Source: an uncultured virus (IMG/VR IMGVR_UViG_3300032117_000007) (taxonomy: Duplodnaviria; Heunggongvirae; Uroviricota; Caudoviricetes). Taken from it: DNA of 64,000 nucleotides. Made by a program: the position numbers and the translations under genes. The notes beneath the pieces are model-generated. The model worked only from the letters and a program-made list of their open reading frames with translations, had not been told where the DNA came from and made no database searches. The DNA lies in IMG/VR virus record IMGVR_UViG_3300032117_000007; one strand, 5' to 3'. How positions within the stretch are numbered: the first letter of the stretch is position 1; each line of letters opens with the position of its first letter. Below are positions 1 to 37,222 of this stretch, piece by piece.

Positions 1-8
1 ATCAATCG

Positions 9-425
9 GTGGCTGCAGCCATTTATCGCGATCTTCCTGATATACATTATCAAGGTCGGGATTGGTCACTGTGGAGTAAAATGACTGAAACTGAGAAAAA
101 GGAATCTATGAAAAACGATAGATTGGCTCCCAGAATAGACAAAACCAGACGCCCATATGAAAAAGACATTGAAGTGATCATGTTTCCCCAGGTGTGGGGA
201 AACACTTCTTTGGGATATGGAGGCATGGGTGGTGCTGCAATGACACCAGCATACACAGTGATAGTTCAAACTCATACTCATGCTTGTGTGTATTTTGGAT
301 CAAGCGGAACATTGGCTTACATGATAAATTTCACCACACAAAGTGCTGAAGGTCGTGAAAAATTCCGACAGGATATGCAATGCCACATTATGAAAGACAA
401 GAAAAATGCAGGTGTATATCTATGA
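9..425 (+). CDS. Conserved phage hypothetical protein; may start upstream of the window
   Basis: 138-aa ORF with motif FPQxWGxTxLGYGGxGGAAMTxAYTV; stop overlaps the next start (ATGAATAA region). Confidence 0.6.
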   Translation: MAAAIYRDLPDIHYQGRDWSLWSKMTETEKKESMKNDRLAPRIDKTRRPYEKDIEVIMFPQVWGNTSLGYGGMGGAAMTPAYTVIVQTHTHACVYFGSSGTLAYMINFTTQSAEGREKFRQDMQCHIMKDKKNAGVYL

Positions 426-691
426 ATAAATTTATTAAAGAATTAGCCAAAGAAGCAGGATTTGATGAATATGATGGGTCCCTTATCAAGGAAGGGCGTG
501 ACTGTGAAGTTTATGTCGATAATGAATTAGAAAAGTTTGCCGAATTAATCATTGAAATGTGTATGGAAATAGTTATAAATTCTGATCCAAGTCCCAAAAT
601 GGTTGTTCATGAACCATACAGAACTATTGTTGAAAATATAAAAGATTACTTCTGGTATGAAGAAGATATCTTTGAAGATAAAGAGGAATAA
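422..691 (+). CDS. Phage hypothetical protein (MNKFIKELAKEAG...LEKFAELII type)
   Basis: ATG at 422 overlaps the upstream stop and follows AGGT; the ORF-track start at 380 looks over-extended. Confidence 0.6.
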   Translation: MNKFIKELAKEAGFDEYDGSLIKEGRDCEVYVDNELEKFAELIIEMCMEIVINSDPSPKMVVHEPYRTIVENIKDYFWYEEDIFEDKEE

Positions 692-694
692 GTA

Positions 695-877
695 ATGGAT
701 GAATATTGGAACACTGTTAATATATTAGGGAATACTATAGGAAGATTGACAATTTCAATGCTCTGCTACGAGGTTGATGAATGTGAACCTCAAAGAATTA
801 GAACAGAGAAAGATATTGAATCAATAAAGCAACAAATGAGAACTTTTATTAAAATGCATAGAGGCAAACAAGTATGA
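695..877 (+). CDS. Hypothetical protein
   Basis: 60-aa ORF after GAGGA, with ATGA overlap into thyX. Confidence 0.45.
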   Translation: MDEYWNTVNILGNTIGRLTISMLCYEVDECEPQRIRTEKDIESIKQQMRTFIKMHRGKQV

Positions 878-1518
878 ATACAGCTAAAATTGTTGCAATT
901 ACACAACCTGTGATTGACTCTGTTAATCTAACTCCAGAAGAATTTATTGCTTATTGTGCAAGAGTTTCAAATCCATCAAATCAAATGAATTCTGAAACAT
1001 CTGATAAGTTATTAAAGTATCTTATTAAAAACAAACATTGGTCCCCGTTCGAAATGTTGTCTGTCACAATGGAAATTAATACCACTCGTGATATTGCTCG
1101 ACAAATTCTTCGGCATCGCTCATTCTCTTTTCAAGAATTCTCTCAACGTTATGCCGATCCAACTAAGGATCTTGGTTTTATTACTAAAGAAGCACGCCTT
1201 CAAGATACAAAGAATAGACAAAATTCTATTGAAACGGATGATGAATTACTCAACAAGAATTGGGAGGCCATGCAAAATGTTGTGAAGAATGCAACACTTG
1301 ATGCATATAAGTGGGCCATTGAACATGGTATTGCTAAGGAACAAGCTCGAGCAGTTCTTCCTGAAGGCCTCGTTCTTTCCAAGTTGTATATGGCAGGAAC
1401 TCTTCGATCGTGGATCCACTATTGTGATCTACGTAGATCAAACGGCACTCAAAAAGAACACAAGGAAGTAGCGGAATCTGCATATAAAGAGTTGACAAAC
1501 TACTTTAAGTTTATATAA
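874..1518 (+). CDS. thyX: Flavin-dependent thymidylate synthase
   Basis: Motifs HWSPFE, RHRSFSFQEFSQRY and EQARAVLP. Confidence 0.95.
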   Translation: MNTAKIVAITQPVIDSVNLTPEEFIAYCARVSNPSNQMNSETSDKLLKYLIKNKHWSPFEMLSVTMEINTTRDIARQILRHRSFSFQEFSQRYADPTKDLGFITKEARLQDTKNRQNSIETDDELLNKNWEAMQNVVKNATLDAYKWAIEHGIAKEQARAVLPEGLVLSKLYMAGTLRSWIHYCDLRRSNGTQKEHKEVAESAYKELTNYFKFI

Positions 1519-1524
1519 TGGGTC

Positions 1525-1532
1525 TATAAATA
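1525..1532 (+). promoter_or_regulatory. T4-type late promoter TATAAATA
   Basis: Exact consensus in the intergenic region upstream of nrdA. Confidence 0.5.
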
Positions 1533-1648
1533 ATTTACTCTATGTTAATTGCGGTGATTGGGTAGAATCTTGCACGGCCATAGTTGAGGATTATGAAAGT
1601 AATTTTAAGGTGTTTGATTACACACCTTAGTTTTAATAGGATATATTA

Positions 1649-3940
1649 ATGACAATTTATGTTCAGAAAAGAAGCGGAGATCGGGAACTTCTTGATCTAA
1701 ATAAATTCCATAAAATGGTAGAGCACGGGTGCCACAATGTTACCGGTGTATCAGTTTCAGAAATTGAATTAAAAACTCAAATTCAATTTTATGACGGAAT
1801 CAAATCTACTGATATTCAGGAAACTCTTATCAAAGCTGCTTCTGAACTTATTTCTGAAGAAACACCGAATTATCAATATGTAGCTTCAAGATTTATCAAT
1901 TATCAACTACGGAAGGAGGTTTATAATAATCATGAACCTCTTAATCTATATTCACACGTAAAGAATGTTGTGAAGGCAGGATATTATGATTCTGAAATTT
2001 TAGGTCATTATACAGAGGAAGAATTTTATCAAATTGATTCTTTTATAGATCATAGGAGAGATTTCAATATTTCCTATGCAGGAATGGAGCAACTTCGCGG
2101 CAAATATCTTATCAAGGATAGAGTTACCAAGAAATATTATGAAACGCCACAAATGGCTTTTATTCTCATTCCTATGGTTCTTTTCAGAAACTATCCAAAG
2201 AATACTAGACTACAGTGGGTTCGAGATTTTTATGATTCACTCTCGAACTTTGAAATTTCACTTCCAACACCAATCATGGCTGGACTTCGTTCACCCGTCA
2301 AGCAATTTAGTTCCTGTGTTCTCATTGAAACAGATGATTCATTAAATTCAATCAATGCCACAACATCTTCGATTGTAAATTATGTTTCACAAAAAGCAGG
2401 AATTGGTATTGGTGCAGGTCGAATTCGCGCTATCAATTCAAAGATTAGAAATGGTGATACATCACATACTGGTGTAATTCCTTTTTATAAACTATTTCAG
2501 TCTGCCGTAAAGTCTTGTTCTCAGGGTGGTGTCCGTGGTGGTGCCGCAACTCTATACTATCCTTTTTGGCATCTTGAAATTGAAGATATGCTTGTTTTAA
2601 AGAACAACAAGGGTGTCGAGGAAAATCGGATCAGACATTTAGACTATGGAGTTCAATTCAATAAAGTAATGTATGAACGTCTATTGACCAATTCAAATAT
2701 TACTTTATTTTCACCACATGATGTTCCAGAACTCTATGAAGCATTTTTTATTGATGTCGATAAGTTTAGAACTCTCTATGAGGAAGCAGAAAACAATCCG
2801 GATATTAGAAAGAAATCTGTTCCTGCTCTAGAACTTTTCACCAAGTTTATGAATGAAAGAAAAGATACAGGTCGTATCTATCTAATGAATGTCGACCATG
2901 CAAATGATCATGGTTCCTTTATTAAAGAATTAGCTCCTATTCGTATGAGCAATTTGTGCTGCGAAATCACACTTACTACCCAACCACTTGAGTCTTTGGA
3001 TGATCCCAATGGTGAAATTTCTCTCTGCACTCTTGCAGCAATCAACTGGGGAAAGATTAAGAATCCAAATGATTTTAAAAAGCCATGTGACTTAGTAGTT
3101 CGAGCACTTGATGAATTGTTAAGTTATCAAAACTATCCTGTATTGGCGGCGCGGAAAGGCACTATGAATAGAAGGCCTTTGGGTGTAGGTATTATCAATC
3201 TTGCTTATTGGTTAGCTAAAAATGATTTATCATATGATAATATTAGTAATGAAGGTCTTCAGAAACTTCATCAATATGCTGAAGCATGGTCATATTATCT
3301 AATCAAAGCAAGTGCCGATCTTGCCGTTGAAAAGGGTGCTTGCCCTCTTTCATCTGAAACCAAGTATTCAAAAGGTATTCTTCCCATTGATACCTACAAG
3401 AAAGATGTTGACAGTTTGGTTGAACCTGTATATAATTATGATTGGGAACAATTAAGGAATCAACTTTGTTCTACAGGTATTCGTAATTCTACTCTCATGG
3501 CTCTGATGCCAGCAGAAACATCTGCTCAGGTATCAAATTCAACAAATGGTATTGAACCAGTACGATCACTTATTACTATTAAACAATCTAAGGATGGTGT
3601 TCTGAAACAGGTAGTGCCGGAAATTAGAAAATTAAAGAATAAATATGATCTCTTATGGGATCAAAAGTCACCTGAAGGATATCTCAAAATTTGTGCAGTT
3701 CTTCAGAAATTTATTGACCAAGCAATTTCCGTGAATACTAGCTATAATCCAAAGCATTATGCTGAAGAAAAAATTTCAATGACTGATATGCTTAAGCATA
3801 TGATCATGCATTATAAGTTTGGTGGTAAGACCTTGTATTATTTCAATACATATGATGGTGCTGGTGAACTAGATGTAAATCTTCCAGAACTTGAAGCTTC
3901 GATTGAAGATGATTATGAATGTGATTCATGCACTATTTAA
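1649..3940 (+). CDS. nrdA: Class Ia ribonucleotide reductase alpha subunit
   Basis: N-terminal ATP cone (VQKRSG), QFSSC, SNLCCEI, KTLYY and C-terminal CDSC. Confidence 0.97.
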   Translation: MTIYVQKRSGDRELLDLNKFHKMVEHGCHNVTGVSVSEIELKTQIQFYDGIKSTDIQETLIKAASELISEETPNYQYVASRFINYQLRKEVYNNHEPLNLYSHVKNVVKAGYYDSEILGHYTEEEFYQIDSFIDHRRDFNISYAGMEQLRGKYLIKDRVTKKYYETPQMAFILIPMVLFRNYPKNTRLQWVRDFYDSLSNFEISLPTPIMAGLRSPVKQFSSCVLIETDDSLNSINATTSSIVNYVSQKAGIGIGAGRIRAINSKIRNGDTSHTGVIPFYKLFQSAVKSCSQGGVRGGAATLYYPFWHLEIEDMLVLKNNKGVEENRIRHLDYGVQFNKVMYERLLTNSNITLFSPHDVPELYEAFFIDVDKFRTLYEEAENNPDIRKKSVPALELFTKFMNERKDTGRIYLMNVDHANDHGSFIKELAPIRMSNLCCEITLTTQPLESLDDPNGEISLCTLAAINWGKIKNPNDFKKPCDLVVRALDELLSYQNYPVLAARKGTMNRRPLGVGIINLAYWLAKNDLSYDNISNEGLQKLHQYAEAWSYYLIKASADLAVEKGACPLSSETKYSKGILPIDTYKKDVDSLVEPVYNYDWEQLRNQLCSTGIRNSTLMALMPAETSAQVSNSTNGIEPVRSLITIKQSKDGVLKQVVPEIRKLKNKYDLLWDQKSPEGYLKICAVLQKFIDQAISVNTSYNPKHYAEEKISMTDMLKHMIMHYKFGGKTLYYFNTYDGAGELDVNLPELEASIEDDYECDSCTI

Positions 3941-5080: not shown

Positions 5081-5557
5081 ATGTGGCTTTATGAGAATAA
5101 AGAAGTTGACAAAACCCAACTTATGGTGTATATTGGTTATGTGTATAAGATAACCAATCTTACCAATGGGAAAATGTATATTGGTAAAAAACTTCTGAAG
5201 TTCAAACGAACAAAGATGGTGAAAGGAAAAAAGAAAAAATATGTTGTAGATTCTGATTGGGAAACCTATTATGGATCCAATCTTGAATTACAACAGGATG
5301 TTCAAGCTCTCGGCACAAACAAATTTAAACGAGAGATACTTGCTCTTTGCAAAACTAAAGGTGAATGTAGTTATATTGAAGCTCTTTACCAGTTTCAAGA
5401 AAGAGTCCTTGAACGTGATGATTACTATAATGCATGGATATCTTGTCGGATTCGACGTTCACATTTGAAGAAAGGAAAAGAACATGGCAGCTCCAAAGAA
5501 GAAAGGCCGACGGAAGATCGGCTCGTCAAAGCGGAGAGCTCGGGCTCTCAATCGTAA
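5081..5557 (+). CDS. GIY-YIG (Seg-like) endonuclease family protein
   Basis: GYVYKITNLTNGKMYIGKK...WETYYGS...YYN pattern. Confidence 0.8.
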   Translation: MWLYENKEVDKTQLMVYIGYVYKITNLTNGKMYIGKKLLKFKRTKMVKGKKKKYVVDSDWETYYGSNLELQQDVQALGTNKFKREILALCKTKGECSYIEALYQFQERVLERDDYYNAWISCRIRRSHLKKGKEHGSSKEERPTEDRLVKAESSGSQS

Positions 5558-7614: not shown

Positions 7615-8028
7615 ATGTTATATGTGACTGATAAGGTAACCCCATGGGGTTGGCACTGTATTATGGATGCTGCAGGCTGTAATCACAATTCAATTACAGA
7701 TTATGATAATATCTATAATTTTGCAAAGGAACTGGTCAAGGAAATTGACATGGTTCCATATGGTGAACCACAGATTGTAAAGTTTGGATCAGGAGATAAG
7801 TCTGGATATACTCTAGTTCAACTTATCGAAACTTCAAACATTTGCGCTCATTTTGTGGATGAAAATGATGAAGTCTATCTAGATGTATTCTCATGCAAGC
7901 CATATGATGTAAGAATTGTTGAAAATATGATGGTCAAGTATTTTAATGCTAAGACAATTCGGACTGGTTTTATTGAACGAAAAGCAATATTGCAAACACC
8001 ACCAGCTCATGAAAGTGGAGCTGAATGA
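7615..8028 (+). CDS. speD: Pyruvoyl-dependent S-adenosylmethionine decarboxylase (SpeD-like), copy 1
   Basis: WGWHxxxD, GYTLVQLIETSNICAHF, YLDVFSCKPY. Confidence 0.85.
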   Translation: MLYVTDKVTPWGWHCIMDAAGCNHNSITDYDNIYNFAKELVKEIDMVPYGEPQIVKFGSGDKSGYTLVQLIETSNICAHFVDENDEVYLDVFSCKPYDVRIVENMMVKYFNAKTIRTGFIERKAILQTPPAHESGAE

Positions 8029-16853: not shown

Positions 16854-16872
16854 AGAAAAAGAAGGATTGTTT

Positions 16873-17316
16873 ATGGAAAAATTTAAAAAATTTTCTGATT
16901 TTATAAAACCTGAAGAATTAGATGATGCTCCAAGAAAACCTAATCGCAAGTTACATTGGGGGTATCATCTTCTTTTGGATATGAGTCTGTGTAATAAAAA
17001 CATAGACAATGAAAATGTTGTTCGAGCATTCTTAAAAGAGCTTATTAGAGAATTAAAGATGACACCAATTGGTGATCCTTTAATAGCAAAAGTTGATGGT
17101 GAAGATGGTCGAGGTCTTTCGGCAATACAACTTATTACCACCTCTTCTATCACGTTTCACGGTGATGATGAAAAAATGTCAGTATATCTAGACATTTTTT
17201 CTTGTAAATCTTATGATCCTAAACAAGCTATGCAAACAGTGATTAAATATTTCAATCCTAAGCATATAGGCCATAAATTCATCACAAGAGATGCAGGAGA
17301 TTATCCCAAAAAATGA
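16873..17316 (+). CDS. Pyruvoyl-dependent decarboxylase (SpeD-like), copy 2
   Basis: WGYHLLLD, GLSAIQLITTSSITFH, YLDIFSCKSY; ATG at 16873 after AAGGA. Confidence 0.8.
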   Translation: MEKFKKFSDFIKPEELDDAPRKPNRKLHWGYHLLLDMSLCNKNIDNENVVRAFLKELIRELKMTPIGDPLIAKVDGEDGRGLSAIQLITTSSITFHGDDEKMSVYLDIFSCKSYDPKQAMQTVIKYFNPKHIGHKFITRDAGDYPKK

Positions 17317-18169: not shown

Positions 18170-18277
18170 TCACCATTTATACCATTCTTCTAGATCAACA
18201 TTTAGATCGTCTTTTACATCAGCTATAATTTGTGTTAAACACTTGCCTTTAACACCATTAATTTTATGGACTACCAT
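18170..18277 (-). CDS. Degenerate terminal QV-array unit, 35 aa (MVVHKING...EEWYKW)
   Basis: Starts in the ATGGTAG junction and ends in TGGTGA. Confidence 0.5.
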   Translation of the reverse strand: MVVHKINGVKGKCLTQIIADVKDDLNVDLEEWYKW

Positions 18278-18453
18278 CTCAGTTCCTCTAGGGTTTGAAA
18301 AAAGATTTGATTCTCGATACGGTGTCTGATCCGATCCCAGATTTGATTATGAACCTGACCTCTGATCTGACCATTGACTTGTTCCTTTATCAGACATCCG
18401 ACTTGATATTCAAATCTACTTCGGGCGTAATGCCATATCTTATTCTTCACCAT
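18271..18453 (-). CDS. QV-array mini-protein (diverged), 60 aa
   Basis: MVKNKI...QVxx...EELRW. Confidence 0.65.
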   Translation of the reverse strand: MVKNKIWHYARSRFEYQVGCLIKEQVNGQIRGQVHNQIWDRIRHRIENQIFFQTLEELRW

Positions 18454-18650
18454 CTCAGATCATCCTTGACCTGATCCCAGACCTGATCTTTGACCTGATA
18501 CCAGACCTGATCTTTGACCTGATACCAGACCTGATACCCAACCTGATACCAGACCTGATCTTTGACCTGATACCAGACCTGATACCCAACCTGACAATAG
18601 ACCTGATCCCAGACCTGATACCTGATTTTACCAATCTTATTCTTCACCAT
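18447..18650 (-). CDS. QV-repeat mini-protein, 67 aa
   Basis: MVKNKI-(QVWD/QVWY/QVKD/QVGY)n-DDLRW. Confidence 0.7.
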   Translation of the reverse strand: MVKNKIGKIRYQVWDQVYCQVGYQVWYQVKDQVWYQVGYQVWYQVKDQVWYQVKDQVWDQVKDDLRW

Positions 18651-18895
18651 CTCAGATCATCCTTGACCTGATCCCAGACCTGATCTTTGACCTGATACCA
18701 GACCTGATCTTTGACCTGATCTTTGACCTGATACCAGACCTGTCGGATGACCTGATCCCTGACCTGATTATAGACCTGATCCCAGACCTGATTCCTGACC
18801 TGATACCAGACCTGATTCCTGACCTGATTATAGACCTGATTCCTGACCTGATCCCTGACCTGATTATAGACTTTATCAATACTTTGCCTTACCAT
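18644..18895 (-). CDS. QV-repeat mini-protein, 83 aa
   Basis: MVRQSIDK-(QVxx)n-DDLRW. Confidence 0.7.
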   Translation of the reverse strand: MVRQSIDKVYNQVRDQVRNQVYNQVRNQVWYQVRNQVWDQVYNQVRDQVIRQVWYQVKDQVKDQVWYQVKDQVWDQVKDDLRW

Positions 18896-19020
18896 TTCAA
18901 ATCATCCTTGACCTGATCCCAGACCTGATCTTTGACCTGATACCATACTCTAGTCGATACCTGATATCTGACCTGATCTTTGACCTGATACCAGACTTTA
19001 TCAATACTATTCTTCACCAT
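18889..19020 (-). CDS. QV-repeat mini-protein, 43 aa, not in the ORF track
   Basis: MVKNSIDKVWYQVKDQVRYQVSTRVWYQVKDQVWDQVKDDLKW; bridges its neighbours with exact 7-nt overlaps. Confidence 0.7.
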   Translation of the reverse strand: MVKNSIDKVWYQVKDQVRYQVSTRVWYQVKDQVWDQVKDDLKW

Positions 19021-19205
19021 CTCAGATCATCCCAACACTGATCCCTGACCTGATACCCAACCTGAATATAGACCTGAATATGGACCTGATCCCAGGTCTG
19101 ACCCTTGACATGATTCCAGGCCCGACTCCAGACCTGATCGCCGACCTGAATATAGACCTGATCCAAGATCTGACTCCAGGTCTGGTTAATATTTTCTTTT
19201 ACCAT
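19014..19205 (-). CDS. QV-repeat mini-protein, 63 aa
   Basis: MVKENI...DDLRW. Confidence 0.7.
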   Translation of the reverse strand: MVKENINQTWSQILDQVYIQVGDQVWSRAWNHVKGQTWDQVHIQVYIQVGYQVRDQCWDDLRW

Positions 19206-19426
19206 CTCAGATCATCCCTAACTTGATCAAATATTTGATACCTCACCTGTCGTCTGACCTGATACCAGACCTGATTCCAGACCTGATACCAGACCTGATC
19301 CCTGACCTGATTATAGACCTGATCCCAGACCTGATTCCTGACCTGATTATAGTCTTGATTCCTGACCTGAATCAAGACCTGATTATAGACTTTAACCATT
19401 GCTATATCAATACTTTTCCTCACCAT
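19199..19426 (-). CDS. QV-repeat mini-protein, 75 aa
   Basis: MVRKSID...DDLRW. Confidence 0.7.
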   Translation of the reverse strand: MVRKSIDIAMVKVYNQVLIQVRNQDYNQVRNQVWDQVYNQVRDQVWYQVWNQVWYQVRRQVRYQIFDQVRDDLRW

Positions 19427-19635
19427 CTTAGATTATCTTTAATCTGAACCTCAACCTGATTCAAGACGCGATCCCTGACCTGATACCTGACCTGATGCAA
19501 GACCTGATTCAAGACGCGATCCCTGACCTGATACCTGACCGGACCCCAGACCCGATCCCTGACCTGATGCAAGACCTGATACCTGACCGGACCCCAGACC
19601 TGATACCTGACGCTATCAATACTATTCTTCACCAT
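19420..19635 (-). CDS. QV-repeat mini-protein, 71 aa
   Basis: MVKNSIDS...DNLRW. Confidence 0.7.
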   Translation of the reverse strand: MVKNSIDSVRYQVWGPVRYQVLHQVRDRVWGPVRYQVRDRVLNQVLHQVRYQVRDRVLNQVEVQIKDNLRW

Positions 19636-19763
19636 CTTAGATCATCTCCAATTTGATCCCAGCCCCGATCCAAGATCTGATACCAGACCTGATACCTGAC
19701 CTGATACTTGACTTGGTCCCAAATCTGATCTCTGATTGCTTGCTGGATAACATTTTGTCTCAT
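19629..19763 (-). CDS. First QV-array unit, 44 aa (MRQNVIQQ...DDLRW)
   Basis: ATG at 19763 after GAAGG; the longer ORF-track call runs through a terminator. Confidence 0.65.
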   Translation of the reverse strand: MRQNVIQQAIRDQIWDQVKYQVRYQVWYQILDRGWDQIGDDLRW

Positions 19764-19779
19764 ATCAAAAACCTTCAAT

Positions 19780-19803
19780 AAAAAACCGGGGATTTCTCCC
19801 CGG
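19780..19803 (-). terminator. Rho-independent terminator
   Basis: CCGGGGA-GAAA-TCCCCGG stem-loop followed by TTTTTT on the minus strand. Confidence 0.85.
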
Positions 19804-19813
19804 CTCTTCAATG

Positions 19814-20164
19814 TTAGTCGGCAGCCTTTCGCCATCCCTCTGGCGTATATTCTCGCTGTCGCCGAATACGGTAAATGCCAGGATCAACCATAATTGACTC
19901 GTGGGTGTGATAACTCCGCAGATGTTCAATCGGAGTAGGTGCTTCCACATTCAAGAACAATTCGTAGATATCCTGACCACTATCAACCTCAAGTTCATAT
20001 GCCTTGACTCGAGAAGCTTCCATCACGTGATTGTGACCCGTCTCAGAGTGAGCAACCACAATCTGGCCTTGCTCAGGAGCCACAGCCTTGATATTAGTAG
20101 GCAATTCTGCAATCTTAATGATAACAAAATCACCCTGGGCAGCCATCTTAGTAAAAGTACGCAT
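19814..20164 (-). CDS. Small His-motif protein, probable partner of DUF6745
   Basis: QGDF...AHSETGHNH...HLRSYHTH...PGIYRIRRQREYTP...AD. Confidence 0.7.
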   Translation of the reverse strand: MRTFTKMAAQGDFVIIKIAELPTNIKAVAPEQGQIVVAHSETGHNHVMEASRVKAYELEVDSGQDIYELFLNVEAPTPIEHLRSYHTHESIMVDPGIYRIRRQREYTPEGWRKAAD

Positions 20165-20197: not shown

Positions 20198-20225
20198 ATT
20201 ATAACACATTAGGAAAATTTGTCAA
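20198..20225 (-). promoter_or_regulatory. Strong sigma70-type early promoter
   Basis: TTGACA-16 bp-TATAAT with extended -10 TG. Confidence 0.75.
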
Positions 20226-23493: not shown

Positions 23494-23714
23494 TCGTTTT
23501 TTAATTATTTCATCAAACCCCATGTAACTTTTTTAATGTCAAAAAAATGAACTCATTAACTAGGTCATCATGCATTTTTTGCGCTACTGACTTCTTAAGA
23601 TTTGTGCGCCGAGCAACACGGCCGTCATTAAGTACAATTTCAACGTAGTACATCATTAAGAACCTCTCAACATCATAGTTGGATCTTAACCTATTTTTAA
23701 AAATAAGTCAACCC

Positions 23715-23951
23715 CTATTTTTTGGCCAGCCATTCGGGCATAGTGATCCGGGCCCGTCGGACGGCGATCGGCCCGAGAGGGCGACCTTTCCGATCCTTAC
23801 CGCCAGGTACCAGGTACTCGTCGGAGATATACTCCACCGAGCAGAGGCTTTTGGGGCGATATTCACCGCCCAGGATACACCACCCCTTGGCAGTTTCATT
23901 GCCTGGGACAAGGAGGGTCTCGAAGGTAACCAATTGTCGCTTCATCATCAT
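23715..23951 (-). CDS. Hypothetical early protein (MMMKRQL...ITMPEWLAKK)
   Basis: Starts inside the left 55-bp inverted repeat, just after its promoter; GC-rich coding. Confidence 0.6.
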   Translation of the reverse strand: MMMKRQLVTFETLLVPGNETAKGWCILGGEYRPKSLCSVEYISDEYLVPGGKDRKGRPLGPIAVRRARITMPEWLAKK

Positions 23952-23988
23952 ATATGCATCTTATACCAATTAAAGAAAAAAGTCAAAC
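23934..23988 (-). repeat. 55-bp perfect inverted repeat, left copy (promoter plus start codons)
   Basis: Reverse complement is identical to 24379-24433; contains TTGACT-17-TATAAG and ATGATGATGAAGCGACAA. Confidence 0.92.
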
Positions 23989-23994
23989 TAATCA

Positions 23995-24372
23995 TATCAA
24001 TACGTTAGTGCTAACCCATTGATTTTATTAAGAAAATATTTTCAACTTTTTTAAAAAAAATATTTCCCAATTATATCAACACGTTATGTGAGAGACGATG
24101 CTAGAGGTTTCTAGGCTGTATAAACCCACACTTAGCATGCTTAGTATCGTTAGAATTGGGCACTTCCGGCTAACGTATTGATTCTATTAGTATTCTCTGG
24201 CTTCGACCTATAGCCTAACGTATTGATATGATTGGAGAATTTTGAGAAATTCCCAGGAACGTCGACGAGGTCGAGGTGCTAACCTATTGATTCTATTAGA
24301 ACGAAAAAAGGTTTAAAAAATTTACTTTTTTATTCCCATTCATATCAATACGTTAGTGCTAACCCATTGATT
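23995..24372. promoter_or_regulatory. Cluster of eight IHF-consensus sites (WATCAANNNNTTR)
   Basis: Plus strand at 23995, 24074 and 24343; minus strand at about 24012, 24171, 24216, 24280 and 24360; non-coding with A/T tracts. Confidence 0.65.
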
Positions 24373-24378
24373 TCCTTG

Positions 24379-24433
24379 GTTTGACTTTTTTCTTTAATTG
24401 GTATAAGATGCATATATGATGATGAAGCGACAA
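24379..24433 (+). repeat. 55-bp perfect inverted repeat, right copy
   Basis: GTTTGACTTTTTTCTTTAATTGGTATAAGATGCATATATGATGATGAAGCGACAA. Confidence 0.92.
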
Positions 24434-24571
24434 ATGTTTGACCTGGTTTTCTTTACCTGCCGCGATGCCCTCCTGGGCGCCGCCCTCTCGGCCGCGGTGT
24501 TCTGCGCCGCTTTGCGCTACGGTGGGGCTAACGCCCTGCCCATCTTCTTCGAACTTTTGTTTAAAAACTGA
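24416..24571 (+). CDS. Small hydrophobic early protein, 51 aa (MMMKRQMFDLVFF...), not in the ORF track
   Basis: Starts in the right inverted repeat; possible TM segment ALLGAALSAAVFCAAL. Confidence 0.55.
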   Translation: MMMKRQMFDLVFFTCRDALLGAALSAAVFCAALRYGGANALPIFFELLFKN

Positions 24572-24640
24572 CCGGTATGGGGTTGACTTATTTCTCGGAA
24601 TAAGTTAAGATGCATATATGATGGTTTGAAAGGGTTTCTA

Positions 24641-25513
24641 ATGCCTCGTGGCGTTCCTAAGTCTGGTTTTCGTAATACCAAGAATAACATTGCTCGGATG
24701 ATGACCGTGCGATCTGACGTTCCGGCCGAACCGCTGGTCGTCGAGTCTGACTCTGATATTGAGGTCAAGCTGCAAGAACGGTTTGACGTCCTTTCGATGA
24801 TGACGGATGCCGCCATCGCCGGTGACGTTCGTGCCCTGGTTGTGTCTGGTCCGGCTGGTCTAGGCAAGTCATTCACCGTCGAAAAGGCGCTCGAGCTGCA
24901 TGATCCGTCTGAGGCTAATCATCGGATCGTGAAGGGTTACGTTCGGGCCCCTGGCTTGTTCAAACTGCTGTATCAGCACCGTCAGGCAGGCAAAGTGCTT
25001 GTGTTCGATGATGCTGACGCCATTTGGTTCGATGACGTCTCGATTAATCTGCTCAAGGCCGTGTGTGACAGCAACGACAAACGTATCGTATCATACATCA
25101 CCGAAGGTGCTTTGGTCGACGAAGAGTCTGCCGAACTTCTGCCCAAGAGCTTTCAGTTCGACGGCACGATCATTTTCATCACGAACCACGATTTCGATGC
25201 AATGATCGACCGCGGTGACAAACGTGCGCCTCATATGCAGGCCATGATGTCTCGCGCGCATTATATCGACCTTGCCATGAAAACCACACGCGATTACCTG
25301 ATCCGTATTCGTCAAGTCGTGCGCGATGGTCTCCTCGAGAATATCGGTCTGGATAAAACTGGTCAGTCTGATGTTCTTGCATACGTCGAGGATAATCACA
25401 ACAAATTGCGTGAACTTTCTCTCCGTATGGTTCTTAAAATTGGTAAGATCCGTAAGACAAATGCGACCAATTGGCGTAAAATTGTCAAGATCACCTGCAC
25501 GAAGGGGGTTTAA
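24641..25513 (+). CDS. P-loop (AAA-like) ATPase
   Basis: Walker A GPAGLGKS, Walker B VLVFDDAD, IIFITN; likely start MPRGVPKSGFR after AAAGGG; own promoter at about 24583. Confidence 0.8.
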   Translation: MPRGVPKSGFRNTKNNIARMMTVRSDVPAEPLVVESDSDIEVKLQERFDVLSMMTDAAIAGDVRALVVSGPAGLGKSFTVEKALELHDPSEANHRIVKGYVRAPGLFKLLYQHRQAGKVLVFDDADAIWFDDVSINLLKAVCDSNDKRIVSYITEGALVDEESAELLPKSFQFDGTIIFITNHDFDAMIDRGDKRAPHMQAMMSRAHYIDLAMKTTRDYLIRIRQVVRDGLLENIGLDKTGQSDVLAYVEDNHNKLRELSLRMVLKIGKIRKTNATNWRKIVKITCTKGV

Positions 25514-25797: not shown

Positions 25798-25911
25798 ATG
25801 TTTGTTTCCAAGTATGGGGAAAAGTCAACGAAGGTGTTTTTGATCATAGAACAAGTCATATTTCAATTAATTGAAATATTTGATCAAGTTAGGGATGATC
25901 TGAGATGGTAA
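25798..25911 (+). CDS. First right-array unit, 37 aa (MFVSKYG...DQVRDDLRW)
   Basis: GAGGTG RBS; ends in the conserved junction. Confidence 0.55.
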   Translation: MFVSKYGEKSTKVFLIIEQVIFQLIEIFDQVRDDLRW

Positions 25912-26075
25912 AGAACGAGATTAGGCGTATGAACACAAATCAGGCCTTGGATCAAGTCAATCGTCATGTCTGGCATCCAGTCTGGTATCAGGTCAGATAT
26001 CAGGTCTGGGATCAGGTCTGGTATCAGGTCTGGGATCAGGTCTGGGATCAGGTCGAGGATGATCTAAGATGGTAA
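25905..26075 (+). CDS. QV-repeat mini-protein, 56 aa, not in the ORF track
   Basis: MVKNEIRR...QVWDQVWDQVEDDLRW. Confidence 0.7.
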   Translation: MVKNEIRRMNTNQALDQVNRHVWHPVWYQVRYQVWDQVWYQVWDQVWDQVEDDLRW

Positions 26076-26284
26076 TGAATAGAATTAAGAAAGTTAGGAA
26101 TCAGGTCAGATATCAGGTCTATAATCAGGTCTATAATCAGGTCAGATATCAGGTCTGGGATCAGGTCTGGGATCAGGTCAGATATCAGGTCTATAATCAG
26201 GTCAGGAATCAGGTCTGGGATCAGGTCAGGAATCAGGTCTGGGATCAGGTCAGGTGGCAGTTTGAAAATGATCTAAGATGGTGA
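26069..26284 (+). CDS. QV-repeat mini-protein, 71 aa
   Basis: MVMNRIKK-(QVxx)n-NDLRW. Confidence 0.7.
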   Translation: MVMNRIKKVRNQVRYQVYNQVYNQVRYQVWDQVWDQVRYQVYNQVRNQVWDQVRNQVWDQVRWQFENDLRW

Positions 26285-26292
26285 AAAAACCA

Positions 26293-26321
26293 TTGACAAT
26301 ATCAGCAACCAATGGTATTAT
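26293..26321 (+). promoter_or_regulatory. Sigma70-type promoter for the DUF6745 gene
   Basis: TTGACA-17 bp-TATTAT with TG extension. Confidence 0.75.
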
Positions 26322-26354: not shown

Positions 26355-27212
26355 ATGATTACGGAACTTACCAAGGAACAGCAGGATCAGATGCCGATCT
26401 ACCGTGACAAGTGGATTGACATTGGTCTCTCTACTGAGACGATTGATCGTGATGCTGCTGTTGCAGCATTGAATATGGCTTATCAGGCTGCAGATCTTGC
26501 TCCTCCCAAGACGGTTTTGTTTGCGTCTGGTCCCAAGGATATGGTTCGGGTATTTCGTGAGACTTTTCCCAACGCTACTTGGGACGAATTCAATTCCAAT
26601 ATCATCTTCGGTGGTCACGAAGCTGACTGGGCTTCTTACATTGACTACTTCCAGGAAGTTGTTGGTCTTGATCTTAACAAGGCCAATGGTCTGATTGAAC
26701 TTGCCAAGAGTTCGGGTTGGGTCTGGGTTTCACAGGATCTTGCCATTATTATGGATCGTCCTTCTCATATTCGTATGGATGAGAACAATGTTCTTCATGC
26801 AGAGGATCGTCCATCTGTTCTCTATCGCGATGGCTTTGCTGTTTATAGTTGGCATGGTCTTCGTGTTCCTCGTGAATGGATCATGGAAAAGGAAACGCTT
26901 ACTGCTGCAAAGGCTCTGGGTCAAGATAATATCGAGATGCGTCGTGCAGCATGTGAAATTGTTGGATGGAGCAAAATTCTTGAGGATCTAAACTATTCTG
27001 TTGTTGAAAAGGACGAGGACGAACAGATCGGCACTCTCGTTGAGGTTGATTTGCCTGATGCCGGTAAGGAAAAGTTTTTGATGGTCAAGTGCGGGACTGG
27101 TCGTGATTTTGCAATCCCAGTACCTCCTGATATGAAGACTGCTTTAGAAGCCAATGCCTGGACTTTTGGTCTCAATCCGGAAGATCTTCGTGAGCTCGAA
27201 GTTCGTACCTGA
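26355..27212 (+). CDS. DUF6745-like protein
   Basis: STExIDRxAA...GxHEAxW...GWVW...DRP...LHxEDRPxxxYRDGFxVYxWHGxRVP...NIEMRR...TGRxFAIPVPPDxxTAxEAxAWTFG; family recognised from motifs. Confidence 0.75.
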   Translation: MITELTKEQQDQMPIYRDKWIDIGLSTETIDRDAAVAALNMAYQAADLAPPKTVLFASGPKDMVRVFRETFPNATWDEFNSNIIFGGHEADWASYIDYFQEVVGLDLNKANGLIELAKSSGWVWVSQDLAIIMDRPSHIRMDENNVLHAEDRPSVLYRDGFAVYSWHGLRVPREWIMEKETLTAAKALGQDNIEMRRAACEIVGWSKILEDLNYSVVEKDEDEQIGTLVEVDLPDAGKEKFLMVKCGTGRDFAIPVPPDMKTALEANAWTFGLNPEDLRELEVRT

Positions 27213-27375
27213 GACTGTAAAGGATCACATCTTTAAATCATGGGACTGTGGCCTCCTCATAAGTGATAGTGCTTATGAGGAGGTTGCTTCATTGAGAAAT
27301 GATGTGATGATTAAAGTCTATTGGAATTTTAGTTGTGATCTTTTATGGGCAATGATGGATCAGTTGGAATGGTAA
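27190..27375 (+). CDS. Diverged array unit ending DQLEW; start uncertain
   Basis: Ends in an ATGGTAA junction coupled to the next unit. Confidence 0.4.
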   Translation: MSSKFVPETVKDHIFKSWDCGLLISDSAYEEVASLRNDVMIKVYWNFSCDLLWAMMDQLEW

Positions 27376-27536
27376 AGAGTGATATTAACAAAGCCAAATG
27401 GCAAGTCCGGGATAAGCACTGGATTTATACGAATGAACTGATCAGAAATCAGGTTTGGGATCAGGTCAGTGATCAGGTTTGGGATCACATCAGAATTCAT
27501 GTTAGGTATCAGGCCGAGGATGATCTGAAATGGTAA
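27369..27536 (+). CDS. QV-array mini-protein, 55 aa
   Basis: MVKSDINK...QVWDQVSDQVWD...DDLKW. Confidence 0.65.
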   Translation: MVKSDINKAKWQVRDKHWIYTNELIRNQVWDQVSDQVWDHIRIHVRYQAEDDLKW

Positions 27537-27733
27537 AGAAAGATATTGATAGTGTCAGATATCAGATCACCCATCAGGTCAGGTATCATGTCAGGGAACA
27601 GGTCTTGGATCATGTCAGGGAACAGGTCTTGGATCAGGTTGGGCATCAGTTTGGGCATCAGGTTTGGTTTCAGGTTTGGTTTCAGGTCATAGAACCGGTC
27701 TTGATTCAAATCTGGGATGATCTAAGATGGTAA
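27530..27733 (+). CDS. QV-repeat mini-protein, 67 aa
   Basis: MVKKDIDS...DDLRW. Confidence 0.7.
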   Translation: MVKKDIDSVRYQITHQVRYHVREQVLDHVREQVLDQVGHQFGHQVWFQVWFQVIEPVLIQIWDDLRW

Positions 27734-27897
27734 GAAATAAAATTGATCGCACAATACTTCAAATTAATAATACATTTCATGATGAGTTCTCTGATTCCGT
27801 TATGAATAAAATTTGGTGGGATGTTACTGGACAAGACGTATATCAAAATTTGAAATATCTTTTATGGGAGCAAATTAGAATTGATCTAAAATGGTAG
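27727..27897 (+). CDS. Diverged array unit, 56 aa (MVRNKID...IDLKW)
   Basis: Conserved termini and 7-nt overlaps, with no regular repeat. Confidence 0.6.
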   Translation: MVRNKIDRTILQINNTFHDEFSDSVMNKIWWDVTGQDVYQNLKYLLWEQIRIDLKW

Positions 27898-27965
27898 AAA
27901 AAAACTATACTCGTCAAATTTGGAATCCTATTTGGAGTCAAGTTATAGAAGATTTGAGATGGTAA
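27891..27965 (+). CDS. Minimal terminal array unit, 24 aa (MVEKNYTRQIWNPIWSQVIEDLRW)
   Basis: Conserved termini and junction. Confidence 0.5.
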   Translation: MVEKNYTRQIWNPIWSQVIEDLRW

Positions 27966-27972
27966 TTTTTTG

Positions 27973-28003
27973 TTGACAATACCATTTAAATGGTGTATAA
28001 ATA
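27973..28003 (+). promoter_or_regulatory. Composite promoter for tmRNA/gp32
   Basis: TTGACA-17 bp-TATAAA; the -10 box is also an exact TATAAATA late promoter. Confidence 0.7.
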
Positions 28004-28007
28004 TAAA

Positions 28008-28297
28008 TGTTGCTGTTGATTGCAATCAAATAGACTTGCTGAGACGGGAGTGCGACTCTCCCCACCTCCACCATAAGCACACGGTATGTCAGAACACTGG
28101 ATGCAAGTCGTGTGTTTATGATGGGGGTGACTAGGTTCGATCAGCTGTGGTAAGGGTTGAGGTAGGCAATGAGTAAGACACGACTCACAATCAGTTCAAA
28201 AACTATAAATGCCAACGATAATGTTGCATTTGAGGGAACTGCCCTAGCGGCATAACCTCATTGGGTATGGGCTCCACCTAGAAACAGAACGGGCCCA
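28008..28297 (+). ncRNA. ssrA: Circularly permuted (two-piece) tmRNA; outer ends approximate
   Basis: T-arm and CACCTCCACCA acceptor end (28073) lie upstream of the GGGGGTG 5' strand (28123) and give G3.U70; tag reading frame 28211-28255 encodes ANDNVAFEGTALAA. Confidence 0.92.
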
Positions 28298-28341
28298 ATA
28301 TACTAACATACTAAAATATACTAATATATACGAGGTTACAT

Positions 28342-29253
28342 ATGAATTCTTTTTCTGCACTAAAATCTTCTTCTAAGAGTTCCTTGGAGAAGTTGACACA
28401 AGAACTTTCAAAGCTAAATTCTGGTACTGAATCATCTAAGGATACTCGCTTCTGGTATCCCAATGTTGATAAGGCAGGTAATGGATTTGCTATGATCCGA
28501 TTCCTACCTCCTTCTGCTAATGAAGATGTTCCATTCATTCGTATGTTTGAACATGCTTTCAAAGGCCCAACTGGACTTTGGTATTTTGAAAATTCTCTAA
28601 CTACTATCGGCAAGAATGATCCTGTCGGTGAATTGAATTCCGTTCTTTGGAATCAATCATCTGATGAAAATTCACCTGGTCGTAAGCAGGCACGAGAACA
28701 AAAGCGTAAGCTAAGTTATATCTCAAACATTTATGTTATCCAAGACTCTGCCAATCCAGAGAATAACGGAAAGGTTTTTCTCTTTAAGTATGGCAAGAAA
28801 ATCTTTGATAAGCTAAATGAGGTCATGAATCCTCAGTTTGAAGATGAAAAGCCAATGAATCCTTTTGACTTCTGGGCTGGTGCTACATTCAAGCTCAAGA
28901 TTCGGAATGTTGAAGGGTATCGCAATTATGATAAGTCAGAATTTGCAACACCTGGCCCTCTATTTGATGATGACGATGCTATGGAGAAGGTTTGGAATCA
29001 GCAACATTCTCTGCAAGCATTCCTTGACCCTAGCAACTTCAAGAGTTATGAAGAACTCAAGAAGAAGCTTGATAAGGTTTTGGGACTTGATGATGCATCT
29101 AAGCTTACAAAGGCTCGGACAAAGACACCTGAGCCTGAGGATGATGAACTACCATGGACACCACCTAAGGTTGAACGTGCGGCAGTTCAGTCTTCTACGT
29201 CAGATGATGAAGATGATGACTTAGAATTCTTCAAACGTCTTTCAAAGGACTAA
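28342..29253 (+). CDS. 32: Single-stranded DNA-binding protein gp32
   Basis: DKAGNGFAMIRFLP, HAFKGPxGxWY, FKYGKKIFDK, NPFDFWxGA, YRNYDKSEF; acidic tail. Confidence 0.97.
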   Translation: MNSFSALKSSSKSSLEKLTQELSKLNSGTESSKDTRFWYPNVDKAGNGFAMIRFLPPSANEDVPFIRMFEHAFKGPTGLWYFENSLTTIGKNDPVGELNSVLWNQSSDENSPGRKQAREQKRKLSYISNIYVIQDSANPENNGKVFLFKYGKKIFDKLNEVMNPQFEDEKPMNPFDFWAGATFKLKIRNVEGYRNYDKSEFATPGPLFDDDDAMEKVWNQQHSLQAFLDPSNFKSYEELKKKLDKVLGLDDASKLTKARTKTPEPEDDELPWTPPKVERAAVQSSTSDDEDDDLEFFKRLSKD

Positions 29254-35687: not shown

Positions 35688-36116
35688 TTAAATCCCAAGT
35701 TCTTTCTCTGTAAAGATCACAAATTCATATCCGCGGTCTTTTGCGTATTCCGTTGCTGCTTTCCATTTTGCTTGATTTATACCCCACGTCATTACTTCTC
35801 TCAAATATTTCTTTGATTTCTTTTTTTCTTCTGTAATGACTGGTGGTATAGTCTGATGTTTAGGTTTTACTTCTATAAGAAGAATTTTGTTTTGATTAGT
35901 TTTGACAATAAAATCTATGAAATAACGATGTATCTTACCATCGACTGGTGATCTATATCTGACAATGGTTTCTTCAGATCCCCACCATAATATATTTGGA
36001 TCTTTGTCAAGTCTCATCATAAGTTTACATTCCCACAAACTCCTATAAATTATATTTGTGGGGTTACCTTTATATTTAGAAGGATTAATTGGTTTAAATT
36101 TTCCGGAATATGCCAT
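35688..36116 (-). CDS. 4: Head completion nuclease gp4 (TnsA-like)
   Basis: YxGKFKPxNPxKYKG, YRSLWE, HRYFxDF, EVKP, NQAKW. Confidence 0.95.
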   Translation of the reverse strand: MAYSGKFKPINPSKYKGNPTNIIYRSLWECKLMMRLDKDPNILWWGSEETIVRYRSPVDGKIHRYFIDFIVKTNQNKILLIEVKPKHQTIPPVITEEKKKSKKYLREVMTWGINQAKWKAATEYAKDRGYEFVIFTEKELGI

Positions 36117-36160: not shown

Positions 36161-37222
36161 ATGGCTTCAGTTTTCCAATATTTATCCGCAGCAGGTTCCG
36201 ATTTAGCTCGAATTGGTCGTGGTGTTTTCGCGGCAGGTGGTGCAGTCTCTGCACTTTCTGCATTTGCGGCCGCAGCAAAACTTGCTGGACAAGGTTCTGG
36301 ATTTCCTGGTGCTTCTCTTATATTTCCAGGTGATGTTTTAGATAACTATACAATGACCATAAGATTCATGCAATATCAGAAAAGATCCATTGGTTCAAAT
36401 GCTTCTCTGACATCTACCGGGTCAAATATAATTTTACCCATACCCAAAAATCTGATGGATACTATCCATTTAAATTATAGCACAGAAAATTTAGGTTCAG
36501 CAGTTGGTGCAGCAGTTCAAAGTTTGTCACAATCTGGAATATCTTCTTCTTCTTTTTCTTCTTTTGAAAAAGGTATAGGCGCTTTAGAAGCAGGGGCTGG
36601 AGCAGTTGCGGCCGGTGCTGCTGGATCAGCCATTAGTAAATTGCAAAGTGCTAATACACAAATAGCAGGTGCTGTTAGCGCTGTTTCTGGTCTTGCAATC
36701 AATCCATTCCAAACAGTATTATTTCAAAATGTAAATTTCAAGAATCATTCTTTTGAATGGCTTCTTACACCTTCAAATAAAGCAGAATCAGAAACTTTAC
36801 AGAAAATTATTACTGTATTAAAACAAAATTCACTTCCCGGTGTTCCAAATTCAAGTGATGGTTTGTTTTTTACCTATCCAAATATTGTTCAAATTCAACT
36901 TAGTTCTCCTGTATCACAATATACATATTCTTTTAAACCGGCAGTAATAGAAAGTTTATCATTCAATTATGCTGCCGGTGGCACACCATCGTTCTTTAGT
37001 GAGACCAATGCACCTACAGCAGTAAGTCTGAATATGCAATGCAAAGAAATTGAACTTTGGACACAATTGGATTATGGAGGATCTACATCACATGCATCTA
37101 TATTGTCTGAACTTGTGAATAACATTACACCAAACAATTCAAGTCCAGTCCCTGGTCCAGTCCCTGGTCCAGTCCCTGGTCCAGTCCCTGGTCCAGTTCC
37201 TGGTCAAGTTTCCGGTCAATAA
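36161..37222 (+). CDS. 48: Baseplate tail-tube cap gp48, with C-terminal (PGPV)n tail
   Basis: LPIP, NPFxxVLFxxxxFKxHSFxWxLxP, YP, KPAV, ELWT. Confidence 0.8.
   Translation: MASVFQYLSAAGSDLARIGRGVFAAGGAVSALSAFAAAAKLAGQGSGFPGASLIFPGDVLDNYTMTIRFMQYQKRSIGSNASLTSTGSNIILPIPKNLMDTIHLNYSTENLGSAVGAAVQSLSQSGISSSSFSSFEKGIGALEAGAGAVAAGAAGSAISKLQSANTQIAGAVSAVSGLAINPFQTVLFQNVNFKNHSFEWLLTPSNKAESETLQKIITVLKQNSLPGVPNSSDGLFFTYPNIVQIQLSSPVSQYTYSFKPAVIESLSFNYAAGGTPSFFSETNAPTAVSLNMQCKEIELWTQLDYGGSTSHASILSELVNNITPNNSSPVPGPVPGPVPGPVPGPVPGQVSGQ
37145..37215 (+). repeat. 12-bp tandem repeat CCAGTCCCTGGT (PVPG)
   Basis: About five copies visible. Confidence 0.9.

Follow-up and report, generated by a model that had tools for sequence, protein, structure and literature searches.

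We analysed a 64,000-nucleotide (nt) stretch of DNA from an uncultured Caudoviricetes virus (IMG/VR record IMGVR_UViG_3300032117_000007), hereafter the window, in which a chain of short overlapping open reading frames (ORFs) with a Gln-Val (QV) repeat, referred to as array 1, lies at a convergent gene junction. Read on the minus strand from 19763 to 18170, nine consecutive ORFs of 44, 71, 75, 63, 43, 83, 67, 60 and 35 amino acids (aa) follow one another:

18170..19763, minus strand: array 1, nine chained mini-ORFs
19629..19763, minus strand: array 1 unit 1, 44 aa
19420..19635, minus strand: array 1 unit 2, 71 aa
19199..19426, minus strand: array 1 unit 3, 75 aa
19014..19205, minus strand: array 1 unit 4, 63 aa
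18889..19020, minus strand: array 1 unit 5, 43 aa
18644..18895, minus strand: array 1 unit 6, 83 aa
18447..18650, minus strand: array 1 unit 7, 67 aa
18271..18453, minus strand: array 1 unit 8, 60 aa
18170..18277, minus strand: array 1 unit 9, 35 aa

The units are built from an N-terminal cap (MVKNxIDK), a (x-x-Q-V)n tract and a C-terminal cap (DDLRW-stop). Eight of the nine ORFs start with MV, and seven end in D-x-L-(R/K)-W, the last two ending in EELRW and EWYKW. Every one of the eight junctions has the form ATGGTRR, with ATGGTGA in five, ATGGTAA in two and ATGGTAG in one; this 7-nt overlap is both the W-stop of one unit and the M-V of the next, so that every unit lies in the -1 frame of its predecessor. 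The combination expected of a coupled operon, a stop/start overlap with an upstream Shine-Dalgarno (SD) sequence, is found here with an SD-like, GGA-containing element 9-13 nt 5′ of the ATG at seven of the eight junctions, the junction between units 2 and 3 lacking it. The unit cores are 12-nt tandem repeats with the plus-strand consensus GACCTGATCCCA. With at most one mismatch allowed, the window contains 13 occurrences of an 18-nt junction pattern, GATNATYTRARATGGTRR, whereas shuffling predicts 0.06; none of 100 shuffles reached 13. As the units are paralogous copies, the features common to them do not count as independent events. The chain of nine ORFs of 35-83 aa with its MV starts, C-termini and QV cores, the invariant junction with its -1 frame step and the SD-like elements at several junctions had all been claimed in an original prediction on this DNA, and each is borne out, on the minus strand.

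Two more QV arrays, unmentioned in the original prediction, are located on the plus strand and flank a gene for a DUF6745 (PF20530) protein:

25798..26284, plus strand: array 2, three chained mini-ORFs (25798-25911, 25905-26075 and 26069-26284)
26293..26321, plus strand: sigma-70-like promoter upstream of the DUF6745 gene (11/12 with TG; consensus match only)
26355..27212, plus strand: repeat-less DUF6745 protein, 285 aa (PF20530, E 4.8e-35)
27307..27965, plus strand: array 3, units 27369-27536 (or from the ATG at 27345), 27530-27733, 27727-27897 and 27891-27965
27307..27375, plus strand: possible 22-aa leader ORF of array 3, ending in LEW-stop at an ATGGTAA junction

The three arrays thus divide the repeat tract among at least 16 separate mini-genes, which are free-standing ORFs of 24-83 aa. 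ATGA-type translationally coupled genes likewise have a start codon that overlaps the stop of the ORF before it; the arrays of the window differ in that the overlap, which occurs 14 times, measures 7 nt, falls within the conserved W-stop/M-V junction and links paralogous units. A fourth QV array, which comprises a 55-aa and a 53-aa unit and shares the junction, was seen about 0.8-1.1 kb upstream of window base 1, at 2351-2673 of a contig (L012) whose next 1726 bases match window positions 1-1726 at 99.9%.

To measure the coding signal, 134 tetrads in register were taken from 12 units, leaving out the degenerate unit 9 of array 1, unit 1 of array 2 and units 3 and 4 of array 3. Their consensus, TGGGATCAGGTC, encodes W-D-Q-V, and the non-consensus share at positions 1 to 12 is 50, 36, 34, 60, 17, 7.5, 2.2, 10, 16, 14, 4.5 and 16%. 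Within the CAGGTC half, the third codon positions (16.4% and 15.7%) and the V-to-I position (14.2%) are the most variable and positions 7 and 11 the least (2.2% and 4.5%), while in the variable half of the tetrad change occurs at first and second codon positions. With the 12 columns shuffled independently (2000 shuffles), 23.6 stops were expected in the QV frame and none was observed, the shuffle minimum being 13; the other two same-strand frames held 9 stops versus 6.6 expected and 16 versus 17.6. Of the 15 lineages compared, some encode Q almost always by CAG and others by CAA, with the Q-V peptide kept, and successive mini-ORFs overlap stop-to-start in every one of them, by a lineage-specific -4, -7, -8, -11 or -17 nt. 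Codon-position bias, stop avoidance, CAG/CAA switches and recurrent overlaps point to protein-level selection on the QV frame. The stop test also agrees with the claim that all units keep an intact frame, as a paralogous mini-ORF set held open in one frame, and the stop/start overlap recurs in unrelated lineages, with lengths other than 7 nt.

The repeat could be traced to the DUF6745 family. The DUF6745 protein of the window has an N-domain (residues 1-80) joined directly to the core and lacks a tetrad tract. A search for proteins of similar length to the units yielded 135 candidates, of which 38 are short QV-repeat proteins; seven of these 38 (P0003, P0008, P0010, P0016, P0019, P0026 and P0032) start with the DUF6745 N-domain. 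Longer proteins matched unit 6 in 174 cases at E<=1e-3 among 310 candidates, with E-values inflated because repeat is matched against repeat, and 89 of 120 longer proteins among the matches listed contain PF20530. Searching 1.84 billion cluster representatives gave 9151 relatives of the DUF6745 protein at E<=1e-3, of which 951 reach E<=1e-30; 39 of the best 150 of these 9151 carry a clear period-4 tract starting near residue 75-90, whose flavours in the same 150 are QVxx, SVxx, ATxx, SLxx, QLxx, AVxx and NLxx. The units show the features of such a tract, namely a period-4 peptide, encoded by 12 nt, in which two positions are conserved and two variable, and they resemble the internal tracts of PF20530 proteins. 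They therefore correspond to the internal tract of the family, detached: no single polypeptide of the window combines tract, N-domain and DUF6745 core, and the units stand free. No Pfam match above cut-off was obtained for the mini-proteins tested, and the 15 tract-bearing longer proteins without PF20530 gave only sub-threshold or repeat-driven Pfam rows, among them a Macro domain at 19.9 bits versus a cut-off of 22.

In the ESM Atlas, unit 6 has no named match by features, and by structure it falls with unnamed viral clusters of 71-79 aa; one DUF6745 cluster at a template modelling (TM) score of 0.66 is a lead only.

The distribution of detached and internal tracts was then compared across viral loci. 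Eighty loci were collected with a repeat-less alignment and 80 with a fused-protein alignment, leaving out the near-copies of the window (L024 and L025); a core hit was found in 153 of the 156 loci analysed, and removal of near-duplicates left 115. An outside tract was defined, with thresholds that we set, as a periodic 12-nt tract outside the DUF6745 ORF and outside any ORF of at least 170 aa. Such mini-tracts were found at 29 of 42 repeat-less loci versus 1 of 73 loci with an internal tract (Fisher p 4.8e-16), many of the flanks examined ending at contig ends. Reclassing three long, doubtful "repeat-less" ORFs as fused gave 28/39 versus 2/76 (p 1.2e-15). Arrays and internal tracts are thus almost mutually exclusive across viral loci. 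Viral contigs L054-L059 and L085-L086 carry arrays between DUF6745 and the partner gene described below, or arrays that extend downstream to 13-18 units, with other caps (MKQV...KENLK and MNSVK...EDLENE) and 4-nt or 8-nt overlaps.

The region directly upstream of array 1 contains a second conserved gene, which we call the partner:

19814..20164, minus strand: partner gene, 116 aa, modelled as all-beta, directly upstream of array 1
20198..20225, minus strand: sigma-70-like promoter upstream of the partner gene (12/12, TTGACA-16-TATAAT with TG; consensus match only)
19779..19812, minus strand: terminator-like structure, a GC hairpin with a T6 run after it, separating the partner gene from unit 1

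Of 78 viral DUF6745 loci, 73 have a relative of the partner, which shares the strand of DUF6745 in 72 and lies no more than 150 nt away in 57; it is also present in 20 of 24 loci from bacterial genome assemblies belonging to several phyla. Four of the misses (L071, L073, L077 and L083) have their DUF6745 match at the locus edge, and in the fifth (L062) that match is near the end of the available DNA. Residues A9, Q10, G11, H39, S40, E41, T42, H46, H81, R83, H88 and R104-E-Y are invariant in an alignment from which L068 was left out (internal stop codon), and so are the motifs QGD, HSET..H and H.R....H. In the window, the pair of adjacent same-strand genes, DUF6745 and a partner of about 116 aa, is split, the two genes being 6.2 kb apart on opposite strands: partner and array 1 occupy the minus strand, and array 2, DUF6745 and array 3 the plus strand, 6 kb away. 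All three arrays therefore abut a gene of the module. The hairpin has a predicted energy of -26.5 kcal/mol (z -5.6), and 0/200 shuffles were equally stable; a consensus terminator scan omitted it, presumably because its stem can extend into the T run. The partner model is all-beta (predicted local distance difference test, pLDDT, 85.9). Fold searches with it gave nothing usable (Foldseek best E 0.37, VIA best Z 4.1), and in the ESM Atlas it fell into unnamed viral clusters only. An AAA-type ATPase gene (phrog_1250, 24626-25513, plus strand), which lies upstream of array 2, was discarded as a system member, being present in only 12 of 78 loci.

Close relatives of the window revealed turnover of units. 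In one contig whose flanks are 99.9-100% identical, precisely unit 7 is missing, and an 87-nt perfect direct repeat borders the indel. A relative at 94-97% identity has two units in its array 2, not three, and carries in its array 3 a base-identical copy of array-1 unit 2 together with a chimera (P0018) made of an array-3 head and a unit-1 tail. A third relative, identical over the neighbouring 849-nt gene, has kept units 4, 8 and 9 with different units between them; units 8 and 9 are base-identical, and unit 4 shows two changes, both at variable positions. The comparison of non-synonymous and synonymous rates (dN/dS) between orthologous units was dropped because changes were too few: the two in unit 4 are both non-synonymous, and none occurs in units 2, 8 and 9 of array 1 or in unit 4 of array 3. 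The comparison of unit number and order in related genomes, proposed in the original prediction, thus showed that unit content differs at the junction region between near-identical genomes. The description of the most promoter-distal units as the most decayed has become doubtful, because these end units are the stable ones, conserved in a relative whose middle units differ.

The DUF6745 protein was modelled with a pLDDT of 95.5 from a 50-sequence alignment. Fold searches with this model returned nothing usable (Foldseek best E 0.19, VIA best Z 4.1), and neither DUF6745 nor the partner found anything below E 0.35 among PDB sequences. A complex of the DUF6745 core with unit 5 (43 aa) was modelled from our own alignments, that of the unit comprising 18 units. 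It scored 0.82, 0.82 and 0.84 by ipSAE (interaction prediction score from aligned errors) versus 0.01 for the best control. The calibration of the tool placed 116 of 157 solved complexes and 2 of 215 mismatched pairs at its mark, counts that apply only roughly because own alignments were used. The bound unit has a pLDDT of 86, and contacts agree between runs to at least 99%. On the core, residues 2-25, 60-68, 76-99 and 136-170 are in contact, a region that includes the linker carrying the tract in relatives. On the unit, all 25 of the 25 lowest-error pairs involve V21, V25, V29, Q32, V33, Q36, V37 or L41, which form the conserved face, and the i, i+3/i+4 spacing of the modelled contacts fits a helix. 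The model supports a putative binding of the units to the DUF6745 core of the same phage.

Overlapping mini-gene chains with a detached DUF6745 tract are a real, selected and recurrent genetic architecture, which appears to be undescribed so far. We consider it probable that array 1 is one of at least three arrays encoding the hypervariable tetrad tract of DUF6745 as free-standing mini-proteins, not as an internal segment. For the function of these mini-proteins, docking in trans on the core via the conserved face is favoured, on the basis of the distribution statistics and of one modelled complex. The units would be translated and translationally coupled, and may act as binders, decoys or anti-defence proteins. 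Transcription of the partner gene would start at its early-type promoter and reach array 1 by passing through the hairpin. Translation of unit 1 would begin at its own SD (GAAGG), and that of the later units by termination-reinitiation at the ATG located 4 nt before the preceding stop. Each 35-83-aa peptide would form a helix whose conserved Q/V face settles in a DUF6745 groove formed by the N-domain, the linker (the tract site in relatives) and the beta region, with the variable x1 (W/R/Y/K/L/G) and x2 (D/Y/N) residues pointing outwards. With the Q/V face docked and x1/x2 outward, one core could present many interchangeable surfaces, and recombination between units would allow cassettes to be gained, lost and moved. 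By analogy only, the role may lie in early host interaction or counter-defence, with the tract determining the specificity of the module. A tentative extension, which we hold to be possible though rather doubtful, is that the phage carries an encoded library: at least 16 mini-proteins docked through their invariant Q/V face on one DUF6745/partner core, offering varied W/R/Y/K-D/N surfaces that junction recombination reshuffles within populations.

Several observations weigh against trans docking of detached tracts. Array 1 is distant from the DUF6745 gene and on the opposite strand, and a terminator-like hairpin lies directly upstream of unit 1, so that expression of the array would require read-through or another promoter. 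None of the 24 listed sequencing runs with the window is on record as RNA. The association of arrays with repeat-less cores is incomplete, 13 of the 42 repeat-less loci showing no array within the DNA examined, and its two locus sets were picked with different queries. The complex score is the model's own confidence and may only re-create packing from fused relatives; the model covers one unit and the core, without the partner product. DUF6745 and the partner both lack a match among solved folds, which leaves them without an assignable biochemical function. Since all assemblies are from short reads, repeat collapse may lie behind the gain and loss of units. The same concern applies to array 1 itself, for which an assembly artefact had been named in the original prediction as a refuting outcome. 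Zero-mismatch contigs of one run (X1), with at least 31 nt on each side, bridge five of the eight junctions (18277, 18895, 19020, 19426 and 19635); the remaining three (18453, 18650 and 19205) are unbridged, and no short-read (Logan) contig spans array 1, the contigs breaking inside it. "Joints" mapped at 90% likeness were not used because they possibly come from other arrays or other phages.

Among the other explanations, independent action of the mini-proteins, as decoys, sponges or inhibitors of a host factor, with a DUF6745 link that is merely evolutionary, as a former, detached tract, is unlikely. It would accommodate the 6.2 kb and the change of strand between array 1 and DUF6745, the arrays of other lineages, which count up to 18 units at 0.5-6 kb from the core gene, and the conserved N- and C-caps that the units own. 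It sits badly with the near confinement of arrays to loci with a tract-less DUF6745, with a model that places the conserved Q/V face, not the variable one, on the core, and with the contiguity of each of the three window arrays to a module gene. Cassettes that move between arrays and form chimeras in close relatives, in a family having both fused and detached forms, could also be read as silent, unexpressed cassette stores, recombination donors for a tract inside DUF6745 in the manner of pilin or VlsE-type antigenic variation. We judge this improbable: every unit possesses its own ATG and stop, SD-like elements accompany nearly all array 1 junctions, and the acceptor gene is wholly tract-less in the 29 array-bearing repeat-less loci. 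Stop avoidance in one frame only argues in the same direction, though a donor for a coding tract would show likewise.

It is very improbable that the array is non-coding repeat DNA (satellite-like, iteron-like or a recombination element) with incidental ORFs. A 12-nt repeat alone does keep frames open, its slippage preserving the frame without selection, which also weighs against selection as the cause of the open frames; in addition, the reverse-strand "DLIP" frame has 0 stops in the tracts versus 1.9 expected, and the array sits at a convergent junction behind a terminator. Such DNA would not account for the stop deficit of the QV frame, unmatched in the other same-strand frames, for the thousands of longer proteins that contain the same peptide repeat, for the synonymous CAG/CAA switches that separate lineages or for a start/stop overlap recurring with different junction sequences. 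Finally, the -1 frame of each unit relative to its predecessor and the high conservation of the junction might suggest programmed frameshifting that fuses the units into one long protein. The junction CTG AGA TGG TGA contains no X XXY YYZ slippery heptamer, and this explanation was rejected for that reason; a full ATG at each junction, the SD-like elements and the plain ATGA overlaps of other lineages further make it hardly credible.

The statement in the original prediction that no described system has this architecture agrees with full-text literature searches for DUF6745 and PF20530, which found no paper, and needs qualification in that the fused form is catalogued in Pfam. The locus DNA had no match in public phage records by megablast or blastn, and PADLOC and NCBIfam gave nothing significant for the module proteins; two PADLOC rows for unit 6 (E 0.0023 and 0.0058) were disregarded because the repeat drives them. 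In cultured phages, the module is represented by hypothetical proteins only, gp37/gp38 of prophiGD102-1 and gp175/gp174 of Ma-LMM01. The 481-aa gp38 of the Mycobacterium prophage prophiGD102-1, with a (x-x-Q-L)n tract, and a 425-aa protein of MW202476, with a (x-S-S-L)n tract, are similar to the DUF6745 protein of the window in N-domain and core, and their tracts are like the units in having period 4 with two fixed and two variable positions. These proteins, all of which carry a hypothetical annotation, differ in that the tract is one internal segment, whereas in the window the core is tract-less and the tract resides in at least 16 mini-genes. The partner gene is next door in MW202476 (E 1.5e-23); in prophiGD102-1, the neighbouring gp37 shows QGD and RRQRE motifs by eye only, tblastn giving nothing at E<=1. 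In the cultured Microcystis phage Ma-LMM01, gp174 is DUF6745-like (25% identity, E 9e-10) and gp175, immediately upstream, is the partner (tblastn E 1e-11); unlike the fused relatives, gp174 has no clear tetrad tract by eye, the array scan not having been run there.

The nearest studied look-alike is gp54 of phage Tweety, which serves as a working analogy only. According to PMC2884959, gp54 (also Che8 gp57 and PMC gp51) contains central 12-nt-encoded tetrapeptide repeats with Ala-Ala fixed and two variable residues, which vary at first and second codon positions and differ in copy number among related phages. The codon bias in the variable half of the window tetrads is of the same kind as the one reported there. 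In PMC9262239, mutants escaping the Phrann gp29/gp30 defence are described as having a changed gp54 repeat number. The tract of gp54 is internal and those of the window are detached, with no detectable homology: gp54 was rejected as a family member (no Pfam match at E<=0.01; 0.1% with hhalign against the DUF6745 profile), and gp55 reached a probability of 0.2% against the partner profile. PMC2884959 also presents VR2 of bbp36, a non-essential gene of Bordetella phage BMP-1, as a variable-copy in-gene tandem repeat; compared by this description only, it differs from the arrays in its 24-bp unit and internal position. For diversity-generating retroelements, no reverse transcriptase was found among about 50 larger window ORFs scanned with Pfam, and a template repeat was not searched for.

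The source virus is a freshwater T4-like myovirus, given a gene content that includes nrdA/B, ThyX, PhoH, two AdoMet decarboxylases, transaldolase, RNase H, gp59, gp32 and baseplate genes, and runs containing the window that are lake-water and freshwater metagenomes. A permuted, alphaproteobacterial-type transfer-messenger RNA (tmRNA) gene occupies 27956-28346 on the plus strand, from the end of array 3 up to the start of gp32. Its ARAGORN tag is ANDNVAFEGTALAA, and it scores 107 bits with Rfam tmRNA_permuted (cut-off 47) and 79 bits with alpha_tmRNA; its type hints at an alphaproteobacterial host. The interval 23670-24623, GC-richer and without a long ORF, separates divergent gene blocks and contains promoter-like modules (TTGACT..TAAGAT..ATATGATG) that recur in either orientation. 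It also holds a 128-nt inverted repeat, with arms at 23928-24055 and 24312-24439, and a 23-nt direct repeat present four times; the interval may serve as a region of divergent early promoters or as an origin region. The two AdoMet_dc (S-adenosylmethionine decarboxylase) genes are separate (7615-8028 and 16867-17316, both plus strand). A SegE-like GIY-YIG endonuclease ORF (5081-5557, plus strand) directly follows nrdB, and an ORF with a TnsA-like endonuclease N-domain (35688-36116, minus strand) adjoins baseplate genes; both are likely mobile or homing elements. A 1472-aa structural protein (50602-55020, plus strand) has a long C-terminal Gly/Asp low-complexity tail, and a 353-aa protein (36161-37222, plus strand) a C-terminal (PVPG)n.

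DUF6745 and its partner constitute a very large module, found in phages, prophages and bacterial genomes of several phyla. The detached arrays offer a natural experiment in which the hypervariable tract is split from the core and marked as the specificity-bearing part, and the core, the partner and the natural panel of units are ready-made constructs for binding and structural tests. If the phage does carry a library, one infection would field many variants of a single host-targeting or counter-defence complex, which would make the system a divided, combinatorial equivalent of Tweety gp54 and other repeat-tunable proteins. If the units dock in trans, this would constitute a new viral route to surface diversity, by cassette shuffling and co-expression and without mutagenic retroelements, and it might explain the recurrence of tetrapeptide-repeat proteins in unrelated phages.

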